From a virus (Duplodnaviria > Caudoviricetes): 64,000 bases of DNA. The notes beneath the pieces are model-generated. The model made no database searches. It was not told the DNA's origin and worked only from the letters and a program-made list of their open reading frames with translations. Within the stretch, counting starts at the first letter, position 1, and each line of letters starts with the position of its first letter. The position numbers and the translations under genes were made by a program. The DNA lies in IMG/VR virus record IMGVR_UViG_3300032225_001145, positions 1 through 64,000 of that record; one strand, 5' to 3'. Positions 43,708-61,337 of this stretch are shown in pieces.

Positions 43708-44451
43708 ATGAAAAAAGTACTATTAGCATTATTTGCAATCGCTGGCTTTACAGCCGCTCACGCACAAGTATCAGGCAATTTAAGTTTGACTTCTGATTAT
43801 CGTTTCCGCGGTATTAGTCAATCTCAAAATGCTCCTGCCGTACAAGGTGGTGTTGACTATGCTCACTCAAGTGGTTTGTATATTGGTAACTGGAACAGTA
43901 GTGTTTCAAGCCAAGTATATACAAATGGCGCAGGTGTAGAGTCTGACTTGTATGCTGGATATAAGAAAGATATTTACAAAGGTCTAACATTAGATGTTGG
44001 TTCTTATAACTACTTCTATCCACGTGCTACAGCAACAAGAACTGGTTCAAACTTTGATACATACGAAGCTTTCGTTGGTCTAGGTTATGGTCCGGTTGCT
44101 GTTAAGTATAGTCAAACTTTAGGTAATGGTTACTTTGGTACCGTTAACGCTAAAAACACAAACTACACACAAGCTGACATTGCTCAATCATTTGAGCCAT
44201 TGAGTGCTAAGTTGAAGAATTTGAGTTTCTTAGCTCATTATGGTCGTACTAATGTTGCTAACAGTTCAAATTTGGACTACAACGACATCAATGTTGGCTT
44301 AGGTTATGCTTTGCCAAAAGATTGGTCAGTAAATGCCAAGTACTATACAAATAGTTCTATGACAAGTACTTTCCAAACAGCTAATAATGTAAATGGTCAA
44401 AAACTTTACAAAAACGCTGTTGTTGCAACATTAACCAAAACATTTGAATAA
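43708..44451 (+). CDS. TorF/TIGR02001-type outer-membrane beta-barrel protein
   Basis: Signal peptide, SDYRFRGISQ, PAVQGGVD, GLYIGNWNS, near-terminal Phe. Confidence 0.85.
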   Translation: MKKVLLALFAIAGFTAAHAQVSGNLSLTSDYRFRGISQSQNAPAVQGGVDYAHSSGLYIGNWNSSVSSQVYTNGAGVESDLYAGYKKDIYKGLTLDVGSYNYFYPRATATRTGSNFDTYEAFVGLGYGPVAVKYSQTLGNGYFGTVNAKNTNYTQADIAQSFEPLSAKLKNLSFLAHYGRTNVANSSNLDYNDINVGLGYALPKDWSVNAKYYTNSSMTSTFQTANNVNGQKLYKNAVVATLTKTFE

Positions 44452-44815: not shown

Positions 44816-44844
44816 TTGACAAACAAACATAAATACCTTACAAT
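44816..44844 (+). promoter_or_regulatory. sigma70-type promoter with nested TAAATA
   Basis: TTGACA 44816-21, 17 nt, TACAAT 44839-44. Confidence 0.8.
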
Positions 44845-44854
44845 ATACAATACT

Positions 44855-44965
44855 ATGAAAAACATTATTCATTCTTCATTATTACAGCCAACACAAGGCG
44901 GGCTAGCCTATTGGGCAGTGGATTGTGGCATGATTAATGTACTAGAAGCAAAGGGTCTTAGTTAA
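44855..44965 (+). CDS. putative attenuator leader peptide (36 aa)
   Basis: MKNIIHSSLLQPTQGGLAYWAVDCGMINVLEAKGLS*; last codons form the antiterminator 5' strand. Confidence 0.65.
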   Translation: MKNIIHSSLLQPTQGGLAYWAVDCGMINVLEAKGLS

Positions 44966-45024
44966 TATTGTATTAATATATTTTTTAACCAAGACCCTGG
45001 AACTAAACACTCCAGGGTTTTTTT
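44952..45024 (+). promoter_or_regulatory. mutually exclusive antiterminator/terminator (attenuator)
   Basis: 44952-65 pairs 13/14 with 44985-98; ACCCTGGA 44994-45001 pairs with TCCAGGGT 45011-18, then a T run. Confidence 0.75.
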
Positions 45025-45044
45025 ATTTTGAAAAGGAAAGAAAG

Positions 45045-45203
45045 ATGATAGATTATACCAAATTGAATGATCGTATTATCGAGCAGGCTTATTCGAACAT
45101 TTTGAGTCCAGAAGAAAAACGCAAACTGATCGAAGAAAAATTTAATCGGGCTGCTCAATATTATAAATCGGTACAAGCACCAATCTACCCAATTAAGGAC
45201 TAG
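45045..45203 (+). CDS. hypothetical 52-aa protein
   Basis: AAGGA SD; MIDYTKLNDRIIEQAY.. Confidence 0.55.
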   Translation: MIDYTKLNDRIIEQAYSNILSPEEKRKLIEEKFNRAAQYYKSVQAPIYPIKD

Positions 45204-45229
45204 ACAAAGTAGTTGAATTGTAGTATAAT
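45201..45229 (+). promoter_or_regulatory. sigma70-type promoter upstream of the tRNA cluster
   Basis: TAGACA-17-TATAAT. Confidence 0.65.
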
Positions 45230-45398
45230 GTGTTATAGGAAACGAGATCCTGGTCTGCACGTAAAACATGGGCCAAATGGGCGGGCACTAAGATGAAACT
45301 CCTTGTGTGGGGCGAAAAATCAGTGTATAGTAAAGCGCATTGGACGATCCAAGTTATTGGAAGCAAACATCATAAGTGGCCAGTGCGTTTTACTATAT

Positions 45399-45485
45399 GC
45401 ATCGGTGGGTGAGTGGCTAAAACCATCTGACTGTAAATCAGACGCCTTAAGGGCTACGAAAGTTCGAATCTTTCCTGGTGCACCA
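45399..45485 (+). tRNA. tRNA-Tyr(GTA)
   Basis: Loop CTGTAAA, long variable arm, ACCA. Confidence 0.9.
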
Positions 45486-45534
45486 CTATAAAATGGTCGG
45501 CTCTTAAACATGTGCTAGTAATCTTAACAATAAC

Positions 45535-45612
45535 GGGGCGGTGGCGGAGTGGCCCAACGCAAGGGACTGCAAATCCCTAAAACCGTCAGTTCAAATCTGA
45601 CCCGCCCCTCCA
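45535..45612 (+). tRNA. tRNA-Cys(GCA)
   Basis: Loop CTGCAAA, U73, CCA. Confidence 0.9.
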
Positions 45613-45616
45613 TTTT

Positions 45617-45693
45617 GGTTTGGTAGTTCAATTGGTCAGAGCACCGCCCTGTCACGGCGGAAGTTGCGAGTTCGAGTCTCGTCCAGACCGCCA
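45617..45693 (+). tRNA. tRNA-Asp(GTC)
   Basis: Loop CTGTCAC, GCCA. Confidence 0.92.
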
Positions 45694-45697
45694 AGAA

Positions 45698-45852
45698 TGT
45701 CGCCCGACCTAGGGGTTAATACTAGGGGTTGCTGACTCGCCATAGCAGTTAGGGTTAGGTAGATTAGACAAAAATCTCCACGCAGGTTGTAGCGGATACA
45801 ACTAACAGTGACAACTCAAGCCCGGGGCTCTACGACAATGAGTAGCCGGGCA
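45698..45852 (+). ncRNA. candidate multi-branch structured RNA between tRNA-Asp and tRNA-Glu
   Basis: Closing stem TGTCGC/GTGACA, several internal hairpins, 3' GCCCGG/CCGGGC stem. Confidence 0.5.
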
Positions 45853-45856
45853 CTTC

Positions 45857-45932
45857 GCTCCCATCGTCTAGAGGCCTAGGACACGACCCTTTCACGGTCG
45901 GTACGCCGGTTCGAATCCGGCTGGGAGCGCCA
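45857..45932 (+). tRNA. tRNA-Glu(TTC)
   Basis: Loop CTTTCAC, GCCA. Confidence 0.92.
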
Positions 45933-45950
45933 AACATTAAATAGTAATAC

Positions 45951-46025
45951 GAGTCCCTGATGTCAACGGTAGCATGTCGGTCTCCAAAACCGATCGTCGG
46001 AGTTCGAATCTCTGGGGATTCGCCA
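45951..46025 (+). tRNA. tRNA-Trp(CCA)
   Basis: Loop CTCCAAA, GCCA. Confidence 0.9.
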
Positions 46026-48745: not shown

Positions 48746-49664
48746 ATTTGTTTACCAATTTCATATAAAATTCAGCAGCATTGTGCAATTGTGTTCGAAC
48801 TATTATTCTTTCAAACCAATCCATTGATTTATCAACCCCAAAATACTCATAAAATTTTATCATTAATAAATTATATTTTTTAATTTCAGCTATGTCAGCT
48901 TTTTTATATTCTTCTTTATGTACTACCAGATGCTGTGGTAATCTTGGTTTAGAATAATTTATTTTTTTGTTGTTGGACCATTCTTTTGGATAGCCAACAC
49001 AAATTCCAAATATTGGTAATACTTTTTTTGGCAATTTAAGTTCGTCAGTTAAATCTATTGTTTTAATTGATCCACAGTACATTGTACCTAATCCCATAGA
49101 CTCGGCCGATAAACAAAATGTTTGTGCGGATATGATAGCATCACAAATAGATCTTATTTCATAACTACCATAACAAAATGCCTCTTGAGATTTTATTGTT
49201 TTGTCTTCGGAGTATAATGTTTTTACTTCAGAATCATTTAATATTGTATTAACTCGACTTAAATCTACACACCAAACAACAAATAGGTCGCATTCCATTA
49301 CAGCATTATAATTACCACTATCACTTCCTGATGTTACATTTAGTTTACCGTCTTTTAATGTACTGACGGTTAATCCCATGTTAGATCGTTTACGCGGCGA
49401 ATTAAAAAATATTTTTTCTCGATTTTCTTTAGATTCTATAACAATAGCAGACCAGGTTTGAAACATAGAACTAGTCGGTGCCGATTGCGCAGCGGCAAAT
49501 AATTTTTCTACTAGTAAAGGATCTATTTTTTGATCAGTAAATCTTCTTACTGTTTTTCTTTTAATAATATTTTCTATAAATTCGTTAGCTGGAAAAGTGT
49601 TGTCTATACCCCCACCATATCTTTGTTGGAACCCAGATAATTCTTGATCGTATAAATTATTCAT
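48726..49664 (-). CDS. nitroreductase family protein (NfsA/Frp-like)
   Basis: RKTVRRF, AQSAPTSS, AESMGLG, GICVGYP, KPRLP. Confidence 0.88.
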   Translation of the reverse strand: MNNLYDQELSGFQQRYGGGIDNTFPANEFIENIIKRKTVRRFTDQKIDPLLVEKLFAAAQSAPTSSMFQTWSAIVIESKENREKIFFNSPRKRSNMGLTVSTLKDGKLNVTSGSDSGNYNAVMECDLFVVWCVDLSRVNTILNDSEVKTLYSEDKTIKSQEAFCYGSYEIRSICDAIISAQTFCLSAESMGLGTMYCGSIKTIDLTDELKLPKKVLPIFGICVGYPKEWSNNKKINYSKPRLPQHLVVHKEEYKKADIAEIKKYNLLMIKFYEYFGVDKSMDWFERIIVRTQLHNAAEFYMKLVNKYGFWFK

Positions 49665-49760
49665 TATATAAATCTCTAGATTTTAATATAAATAATGTAT
49701 TGCATACTCGACATACGGAAATTTTCATAGTATTATTTAGTACAGGATGCAAAAGATAGT

Positions 49761-50309
49761 TTAATTTATAAAGACAGCTAATCTTTTCTTGGCCTCATTC
49801 ATAGTAAGTCTGTTATGATTATTAGCGCAATTAATCACTAAACTAATACATATTCGTTCTTCGATTAAATTAATTATATTATGTGGCAATCCTACTTGAA
49901 CCAAACTAGGGCTACTGATATGTTCTTCGACCGTAAAATTAACCTCAGACAAATCATAAACATAGAGAGTAGTTCCTATCGGATTATAAATAACTTGTTT
50001 ATGAATATCTGGCTTGACAGTAAACCATTGCATTACACTATCTTTACCTCCAATCACCCAATTAATTTTTACATAATCACCGAGCCCAGCGTCGCTATGT
50101 ATTAGCGGTTTGCAGTTTGGTTTACGATAAAAAACTTCTGCAAATCCTATTGATATGTTATAAGACTTTAGAGATTCAACAAGTGTTGGATTAATATCGA
50201 TGTTGACATCAAGCGACAAATGCCCAGTTTTTTTTATAGCATTGATAGTTTTTGCTATGTTATTAAGTGGAAAAATAGATAAATTTAAAGGTTGGCAGTA
50301 TTCGTTCAT
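49761..50309 (-). CDS. HxD..H oxygenase/cupin-like protein
   Basis: IHSD, KINW, VGLPHN, RICIS. Confidence 0.55.
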   Translation of the reverse strand: MNEYCQPLNLSIFPLNNIAKTINAIKKTGHLSLDVNIDINPTLVESLKSYNISIGFAEVFYRKPNCKPLIHSDAGLGDYVKINWVIGGKDSVMQWFTVKPDIHKQVIYNPIGTTLYVYDLSEVNFTVEEHISSPSLVQVGLPHNIINLIEERICISLVINCANNHNRLTMNEAKKRLAVFIN

Positions 50310-51022: not shown

Positions 51023-51865
51023 TTATATGAAATTAAAAGTTAATCTTTTAAGCAATCTAGAACCGTTAACAGTTTCCCGTTTATGGACATTGAACCAATT
51101 ATCGTAAACAACAATATCACCTAGTTGCCATACATGTTTATAAAGTGTGTTAGATTTACTTTCTAATAATGTATATGTATTGAGCATAAACGCATCTATT
51201 TCTTTAGCTGTTAAAGTTATATTATTTTTTAACACACTATTAATCCAAGCCTTATTATTTTTGCCAGGATGATCGTAACAGTTTAGGTTAGGACTAGATT
51301 TATTTGTTTTAGGATTAATTTTAAGAAATGGAAGTTTTTTTAATCTTGTTCCAGGAATATACATGTCTTGAAACATTATTTCGTAACTGTCAAAGTTATT
51401 TTTCTCGTCCTGCGTAAGTTGATCCCATGCTAGTTCAAGATTTAACCAAGTCGTATCACCAGATCCGTCCTCAGTATTTTTAACCATGTATAACGCTCTG
51501 CCAGGATAGCTTAGTTCATTGACATGTGGCATATCGGCGTGGTATGCCATGTAGTCATTTTTAAACATATTATTGTTGGACTGAAAATAACTTACAGGTT
51601 TTAATGTGTCTTGTTTAATAGTCGAATCATTACCTTGTGAAATAAAAGATTTTTTATAGTCATCACGAGACCATACAGTACCAAATTTTTGTCCTAACGA
51701 ATAAAATTCGTCATCGGTTAAATTAGGACCAAGACCCCTAATAACAATTAGGTTTCTATCAAGGAGTAGATCGGTTAATAATTTGTTATCAATAGACATA
51801 AACTCCTGAAAAGAGTCTACATGCGTTATACTAGCCCAAGATTCGAAAATATTTTCAGTTTTCAT
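51023..51865 (-). CDS. TauD/TfdA family dioxygenase
   Basis: YHAD, GDT.W, HVWQLGDIVVYDN..HKR, RLLKR; start moved to 51865. Confidence 0.88.
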   Translation of the reverse strand: MKTENIFESWASITHVDSFQEFMSIDNKLLTDLLLDRNLIVIRGLGPNLTDDEFYSLGQKFGTVWSRDDYKKSFISQGNDSTIKQDTLKPVSYFQSNNNMFKNDYMAYHADMPHVNELSYPGRALYMVKNTEDGSGDTTWLNLELAWDQLTQDEKNNFDSYEIMFQDMYIPGTRLKKLPFLKINPKTNKSSPNLNCYDHPGKNNKAWINSVLKNNITLTAKEIDAFMLNTYTLLESKSNTLYKHVWQLGDIVVYDNWFNVHKRETVNGSRLLKRLTFNFI

Positions 51866-56672: not shown

Positions 56673-56749
56673 ACCTTGGTAGACAAATTGGAAAAGTCGT
56701 TGCTTCAAGAGAGCAAAAGTTATGAGTTCGAATCTCATCCAAGGTACCA
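56673..56749 (+). tRNA. atypical tRNA, Leu-like (AAG or CAA), short variable arm
   Basis: ACCTTGG/CCAAGGT-ACCA, TTCGAAT T loop, TTGCT/AGCAA stem with loop TCAAGAG. Confidence 0.65.
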
Positions 56750-61244: not shown

Positions 61245-61337
61245 GGAGAGCTGGCCGAGCGGTCGAAGGCACCCGCCTACTAAGCGGGCATGGACCTAAA
61301 CAGTCCATCTGGGGTTCGAATCCCTAGCTCTCCGCCA
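61245..61337 (+). tRNA. tRNA-Ser(ACT)
   Basis: Ser-type body, long variable arm, loop CTACTAA, GCCA. Confidence 0.85.

Follow-up and report, generated by a model that had tools for sequence, protein, structure and literature searches.

A probable leader-ORF transcription attenuator heading a phage tRNA region, with leader codons that match the downstream tRNAs

The tRNA region of the phage studied here is probably headed by a ribosome-mediated transcription attenuator, in which translation of a short leader ORF gauges the supply of tRNAs. No expression data are available. The reading is based on the elements themselves, their conservation among relatives, the covariation of the antiterminator helix, the link to tRNA clusters and a match between leader codons and downstream tRNAs, all of which were observed. 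The analysed window (64,000 nucleotides) comprises the first 64 kb of the 125-kb IMG/VR virus record IMGVR_UViG_3300032225_001145, which is incomplete (completeness estimate 36%). The phage has a G+C content of about 38% and encodes a family B DNA polymerase of the T4 type, 14 tRNA genes and a two-piece tmRNA. The features of the region are as follows.

44816-44844, + strand: sigma70-type promoter (TTGACA 44816-44821, 17-nt spacer, TACAAT 44839-44844; 11/12 in the promoter scan)
44855-44965, + strand: leaderless leader ORF of 36 sense codons, MKNIIHSSLLQPTQGGLAYWAVDCGMINVLEAKGLS, with a TAA stop at 44963-44965
44952-44998, + strand: antiterminator hairpin, inferred from fold and covariation, with the 5' arm AGGGTCTTAGTTAA (44952-44965) and the 3' arm TTAACCAAGACCCT (44985-44998)
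44994-45024, + strand: intrinsic terminator with ACCCTGGA (44994-45001), the 9-nt A-rich loop ACTAAACAC, TCCAGGGT (45011-45018) and a T7 tract (45018-45024)
45045-45203, + strand: 52-aa ORF, the first gene past the terminator, with the Shine-Dalgarno-like AAGGAAAG at 45033-45040
45201-45229, + strand: second sigma70-type promoter (TAGACA, 17-nt spacer, TATAAT; 11/12 in the promoter scan)
45230-45398, + strand: conserved structured RNA of unknown kind, about 170 nt, ending 1 nt before tRNA-Tyr
45399-46025, + strand: tRNA cluster with Tyr(GTA), Cys(GCA), Asp(GTC), Glu(TTC) and Trp(CCA)

A rereading of the window placed the promoter, the 36-codon ORF without a Shine-Dalgarno sequence, the helix and the terminator exactly where a preliminary description had located them. 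The ATG of the leader ORF at 44855 lies 10 nt past the -10 box. Both the transcription start site and the translation of the ORF are inferred, and since the host is unknown, its capacity for leaderless translation is unknown as well. The last codons and the stop of the ORF are spanned by the 5' arm of the antiterminator, whose arms pair at 13 of 14 positions with an A-C as the sole mismatch. The segment ACCCT (44994-44998) is common to the 3' arm of the antiterminator and the 5' arm of the terminator, and because both structures need it, they are mutually exclusive. This pairing and the overlap with the terminator, which the preliminary description had also claimed, were both found again. The minimum-free-energy fold of the 180-nt leader includes the stop-spanning helix (z = -2.49 compared to shuffles). 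An automated terminator scan missed the terminator, because it permits only loops of 3-8 nt.

Relatives were retrieved via neighbouring proteins and the terminator motif, which gave more than 100 loci, all of them from uncultured phages. These T4-like relatives provide 54 distinct cassettes and about 47 full versions. A promoter of the form TTGACN, 16-18 nt, TAnnnT occupies the same position in about 48 of the 54 distinct relatives, and in all of them the ATG follows the -10 box by 6-11 nt, which results in a leaderless mRNA. The leader ORF comprises 20-53 codons and its sequence turns over almost completely between relatives. Its frame is selected to stay open, because no in-frame stop occurs in the 1772 codons of 47 leader versions, while the other two frames contain 157 and 111 stops. 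In nearly all relatives the stop codon is located 25-33 nt upstream of the terminator motif. Furthermore, the 3' end of the leader ORF folds onto the 5' arm of the terminator in all versions, and the GGG arm of this helix occupies differing reading frames in different relatives, which points to selection on the RNA of the helix.

The helix was supported by four comparisons. When arms were swapped between relatives, the pairing weakened from -14.9 kcal/mol for the own arms to -10.3 kcal/mol, and none of 5000 permutations was as good as the native combination. The antiterminator segments of 44 relatives folded with a mean energy of -22.0 kcal/mol compared to -13.0 kcal/mol for shuffles (mean z of -3.4), and in 41 of the 44 at most 5% of the shuffles reached the native energy. 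In a plain MAFFT alignment, the covariation score of the helix was 0.236 compared to 0.158 for shuffles (0 of 500 as high), and slid controls gave 0.06-0.16. An alignment fitted to the model, which leans toward structure, showed pairing in 77% of the cells, changes on both sides in 12 of 14 pairs and 157 compensatory cells compared to 57 ± 8 in shuffles. For the terminator, a consensus fold of 47 relatives predicted the hairpin, 4 of whose 10 pairs show compensatory changes; its stem covaries (GGA/TCC, AGG/CCT, GAA/TTC), also in members retrieved without the motif.

The positions of these structures fit the geometry of trp-type attenuation with a ribosome at the leader stop, although no convincing 1:2 hairpin accompanies them. 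In 34 of 43 versions the 5' arm of the antiterminator begins 7-16 nt before the stop and thus within the footprint of a terminating ribosome, and the terminator starts just outside this footprint. For 9 versions the fit to such an occlusion is looser, with the arm 23-34 nt upstream. The antiterminator segment is on average more stable than the terminator (mean terminator energy -14.5 kcal/mol) and prevails in the combined fold in 32 of 47 versions. Since it is the more stable of the two, read-through should be the default in the absence of a ribosome. Altogether, the attenuator reading put forward in the preliminary description, including translation of the leader, is supported by the about 47 versions: the frame is open, the stop position is conserved, the helix compensates, the terminator lies beyond the footprint and a tRNA cluster always comes next.

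This last point applies to every cassette with enough downstream sequence, which is followed by a tRNA cluster on the same strand. For 24 of 39 lineages, a simple scan for sigma70-like promoters gave no hit in the interval from the terminator to the first tRNA. Two clades include five loci at which the tRNA cluster opens only 20-35 nt past the T tract; therefore, the tRNAs at these loci would be made only by read-through of the terminator. The situation in the window is less strict. As the preliminary description had cautioned, a second promoter is present at 45201-45229, which can transcribe the tRNAs and thereby bypass the attenuator, so that direct gating by the attenuator is limited here to the 52-aa ORF, while the tRNAs merely receive additional transcription from it. 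About half of the lineages have a homologue of the 52-aa ORF (IDYxKLNxRIVxQAY...KIERA) in this position; a comparison with Pfam and PHROG gave no match. The structured RNA behind the second promoter aligns with 14 relatives and its helices covary. It comprises the motifs GGNAACGNG..CCTG and AAATGGGCGG and a long closing helix, had no match in Rfam, is present in many lineages and follows directly after the attenuator terminator in several relatives. No similar cassettes were seen ahead of the other tRNA groups of the window. Within the tRNA cluster, a spacer of about 160 nt (window 45694-45856) between tRNA-Asp and tRNA-Glu carries no tRNA.

The leader ORF of the window contains no runs of control codons. 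The preliminary description had considered it a pan-codon sensor, on the basis of a hand count of 18 amino acids and 29 codons. A recount gave the same values, 18 distinct amino acids and 29 distinct codons in 36 codons, but this diversity is only mildly above chance. Compared to real ORFs it corresponds to P = 0.12 for amino acids and 0.025 for codons, and compared to stop-free shuffles to P = 0.12 and 0.09, respectively. The homologous leaders showed the same mild excess (family mean z about +1.0 at the amino-acid level and +0.5 at the codon level). Because the effect is modest, diversity was dropped as the main signal. Instead, the codons match the tRNAs that the phage itself encodes.

The match was determined with one representative per peptide clade (16 clades) and all tRNAs within 4 kb. 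Of the 153 downstream anticodons, 145 (95%) are served by a cognate codon in the leader, compared to a coverage of 72% for anticodon classes without a downstream tRNA. A margin-preserving null gave 132.4 ± 2.8, with none of 3000 permutations as high as 145, and segments of equal length from long ORFs at the same loci covered 101.7 ± 5.2 of the 153. The result was robust for downstream intervals of 1.5-6 kb and for a strict Watson-Crick reading (z = 2.9), and it persisted when Trp and Cys were left out (z = 4.6 without Trp). At the level of amino acids, 195 of 199 tRNA identities are represented in the leader (null 184.5 ± 2.5). All 14 tRNA anticodons of the phage's own record have a cognate codon among the 35 codons that follow the start; random segments reach 9.3 ± 1.5 (P = 0.0005). 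Among the 16 clade leaders, 15 contain Trp (7.5 expected) and 14 contain Cys (5.7 expected); the sole clade with a Trp-less leader has no tRNA-Trp in its available downstream sequence. Since the lineages are related, the P-values from the permutations are too optimistic. That leader codons track the downstream tRNAs is a new observation.

The match does not extend to every measure. For the five adjacent tRNAs alone it was not significant (5/5, P = 0.10). If only those codons are counted whose stall leaves the 5' arm free, the coverage amounts to 119 of 153. Roughly one in six tRNA classes has its matching codons exclusively within the last approximately 8 positions of the leader, and therefore a stall at these codons should not give read-through under a simple positional model. 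Two other measures were discarded. The presence of Y, C, D, E and W to suit the five adjacent tRNAs was not significant on its own (P about 0.11), and the plain fraction of leader codons read by downstream tRNAs was raised by only 6.5 points in general and not at all in this window.

Apart from its codons, the leader showed traces of constraint on the peptide. Close pairs of leaders differ at codon positions 1, 2 and 3 in a ratio of 198:152:220, and 48% of the single-base codon differences are synonymous, about twice the neutral share. Judged from these substitutions, the constraint at the peptide level is weak but nonzero, and some selection on the leader peptide itself is possible. The only invariant residue is a Trp (44912-44914 in the window), found in 42 of the 42 leaders that span its aligned position; a semi-conserved N-S-I-(P/R)-G-like motif lies about 8-10 residues further on.

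Taken together with the raised synonymous share, the common Trp and motif could point to a stand-alone micro-gene. A small conserved-Trp protein would then be expressed from its own promoter and terminator, the hairpin would be part of a compound 3' structure (for example in mRNA stabilisation), and the tRNAs would be transcribed by leaky read-through or from other promoters, like the one that precedes them in this window. However, a plain micro-gene would be difficult to reconcile with a peptide that turns over almost completely in sequence and in length (20 to 53 residues), or with a GGG arm that is retained in different reading frames and a hairpin that excludes the terminator and covaries. 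Moreover, the 24 of 39 lineages without an own tRNA promoter behind the terminator remain unaccounted for, and codons matched to downstream tRNAs would not be expected. We consider this explanation unlikely.

The invariant Trp raises another possibility, namely an attenuator that works by nascent-peptide arrest of the TnaC/SecM kind. Here, the Trp and the motif would stall the ribosome for a specific ligand or state rather than by codon-by-codon sensing of tRNAs. The invariance of the Trp at one aligned position and the N-S-I motif behind it would suit such an arrest, and the invariance of the Trp is not explained by a local RNA hairpin. The Trp codon is usually part of a small hairpin whose stability hardly exceeds that of shuffles (z = -0.84). 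As an explanation of the invariance, an RNA hairpin (CCA...TGG) is therefore weak, the more so as the TGG is paired in 81% of the shuffles. By the same value, no clear upstream 1:2 (pause/anti-antiterminator) hairpin was found. Against an arrest peptide, on the other hand, there is no second invariant residue, the spacing from the Trp to the stop varies from 27 to 102 nt, and the C-terminus of the leader is set by the RNA arm instead of a fixed residue. The match of codons to tRNAs survives without the Trp (z = 4.6), and the clade with the Trp-less leader retains the switch. We therefore give peptide arrest little credit, and it ranks among the improbable readings.

One property of the cassette is not explained by the attenuator model. 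The terminator loop follows the consensus A(C/T)TAAA(A/C)AC and shows a degree of conservation far above that of usual terminator loops (window 44994-45024; loci L012, L028, L030 and L032), even in members that were found without that search motif. This could indicate that the terminated transcript of about 170 nt is itself the product, a trans-acting small RNA possibly acting together with the peptide, by which attenuation would not be excluded. Small RNAs derived from attenuators are documented: in Sinorhizobium, the attenuator RNA rnTrpL and the peptide peTrpL act in trans (PMC6614838, PMC7968998). For the phage transcript, no target complementarity was found (by eye only), its remainder evolves fast, and the fixed position ahead of tRNA clusters points to an action in cis. 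In consequence, a small RNA as the actual product seems very improbable.

A repeated mobile promoter/stem-loop cassette was also ruled out, as only one copy of the element occurs in the window, and likewise in the 125-kb record. In the PeSL (promoter-early stem-loop) cassettes of T4-type phages, the promoter/stem-loop unit recurs many times per genome.

For the preferred attenuator, the following sequence of events is proposed. The switching behaviour and the signal that is sensed are inferred, and no response to ribosome stalling has been measured. Transcription would start a few bases before the ATG, so that the emerging 5' end could immediately be bound by a ribosome. Without a ribosome, the stop-spanning hairpin (44952-44998) would form first and sequester the 5' arm of the terminator, and the polymerase would read through. 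A ribosome that reaches the last codons or the stop would melt or cover the 5' arm of the hairpin; the terminator, which begins about 29 nt past the stop and outside the footprint, could then form and end transcription at about 45024. The leader would thereby act as a timer of codon decoding speed, with codons drawn from the set read by the tRNAs of the phage. If decoding were slow, as might result from starvation, tRNA cleavage or a shortage of host tRNAs early in infection, the polymerase would enter the 52-aa ORF, the structured RNA and the tRNA genes, and once tRNAs were sufficient, the read-through route would close. Hence, the phage probably raises its tRNA production when ribosomes decode the leader codons slowly.

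A further step would be to regard the leader as a codon sampler of the phage tRNA set, whose read time sets the race between terminator and antiterminator, which answers the cleavage of tRNAs by the host, and whose design recurs in unrelated phages such as phiCbK. For this wider reading we see the balance as even.

The element shares its architecture with the trpL, hisL, thrL, pheL and ilv leaders, which also comprise a short ORF near the promoter, an intrinsic terminator and a mutually exclusive antiterminator. As in these enterobacterial leaders, a ribosome at the end of the ORF would cover the 5' arm of the antiterminator. A further shared trait is seen in the multivalent thr and ilv leaders, whose control codons serve more than one amino acid. 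Unlike the enterobacterial leaders, the phage leader has no runs of control codons, uses most amino acids once or twice, matches up to 15 different tRNAs with its codon set and lies on a leaderless mRNA. Because no clear 1:2 hairpin was found in the phage element, untranslated RNA should read through. Finally, the enterobacterial leaders control biosynthetic enzymes, whereas the targets of the phage attenuator are tRNA genes. Nothing at the attenuator reached Rfam thresholds; the matches to leader families (Thr_leader RF00506, His_leader RF00514 and trpB RF04312) obtained 18-23 bits compared to thresholds of 49-59, with E of 0.9-3.4, and are at chance level.

Other systems are similar in part. 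In mycobacteria, leaderless polycysteine short ORFs are described as cysteine-responsive attenuators (10.1101/834739). As far as the available part of that source goes, these resemble the phage element in having a leaderless short ORF at the 5' end whose translation tunes downstream genes, and differ from it in their runs of a single amino acid, their role in cysteine metabolism and their cellular genes. The vmlR leader of B. subtilis is a ribosome-mediated attenuator that senses translation stress (PMC9226507); here too, a stall on a short leader favours the antiterminator and activates a gene that restores translation. In the vmlR kind, however, antibiotic-bound ribosomes stall at particular peptide contexts and the output is an ABCF protein, whereas for the phage the decoding speed of tRNA-matched codons is proposed as the signal and tRNAs are the output. 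T-box riboswitches likewise make read-through of an intrinsic terminator dependent on the condition of the tRNA pool, but they bind uncharged tRNA directly, involve no ORF and control genes for aminoacyl-tRNA synthetases or amino acids. No T-box was matched in Rfam at the gathering threshold, and none at E ≤ 5 around the attenuator.

Analogous units in a cultured phage were found in Caulobacter phage phiCbK (JX100813). One unit comprises TTGACA, a 17-nt spacer, TAGGGT and an ATG 7 nt later, which opens a leaderless 32-codon ORF rich in F/V/I/Q; this is followed by a strong terminator and the tRNAs Phe-Val-Ile-Ile-Val-Gln-Gln-Ile. In a second unit, an ORF rich in L/S/K/A/P/T precedes the tRNAs Pro-Lys-Leu-Ala-Ser, again with a strong terminator in between. 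The units are located at about 51306-51499 and 49540-49789 of the record (L112 4507-4700 and 2741-2990). The phiCbK leaders show no sequence similarity to the attenuator family described here and are more biased in composition; whether phiCbK forms an antiterminator was not tested.

Phage tRNA genes are usually explained as a compensation for codon usage, and to our knowledge the control of their expression is largely unknown. A more recent view holds that they counteract host defences based on tRNA cleavage (PMC11555353, PMC11464382). In the literature searched, no description of tRNA genes under leader-ORF attenuation was found. If the reading is correct, the leader ORF would constitute a feedback loop on tRNA supply via decoding speed, and leader-peptide attenuation would extend from amino-acid biosynthesis to the translation machinery, with a design that samples many codons instead of repeating one. 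If the wider reading also applies, the virus would measure and correct its own tRNA supply and automatically answer tRNA-cleaving host defences. The large family of about 47 distinct versions offers natural variation for testing, and the analogous unit in the cultured phiCbK could serve as a bench system.

With respect to the host, the data provide little more than indications. A DNA search and a terminator-motif search of the phage collection revealed no cultured phage with the attenuator region. The nearest cultured phages, identified via a neighbouring protein, are only 40-57% identical, and Stenotrophomonas phage DLP6 gave no match to model R1. A scan of bacterial genomes with the terminator motif gave three matches, approximately the number expected by chance, from which no host can be assigned; among them are a fragment of a phage and, in a betaproteobacterial assembly, a plain terminator. 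On the GC-rich contig JBGATH010000035.1 of a Usitatibacteraceae MAG (L109 7505-7545), a plain terminator with CCCCGGAACTAAACACTCCGGGG and a T run lies just 3' of a gene. Its loop is identical to that of the attenuator, for which chance, a hint at the host or a shared origin are all possible. The tmRNA of the phage (window 43227-43589) is of the two-piece, circularly permuted type, with 112 bits for the Rfam family tmRNA_permuted and 83 bits for alpha_tmRNA. Its predicted tag comprises 29 residues, and relatives encode a tmRNA as well. Such a tmRNA is a hint to a host of the alphaproteobacterial type.

Between the tmRNA and the attenuator, the window encodes a protein of 247 aa (43708-44451) that matches the Pfam family Gcw_chp (PF09694) with E = 2e-47. 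Its N-terminus resembles a signal peptide (judged by eye, without a predictor), and such a protein is unusual cargo for a phage. In addition, ARAGORN identified a tRNA-Leu(AAG) and a tRNA-Ser(ACT) at window 56673-56749 and 61245-61337. Anticodons beginning with A are unusual. The leader ORF contains CTT/CTA and AGT codons that these two tRNAs could read.
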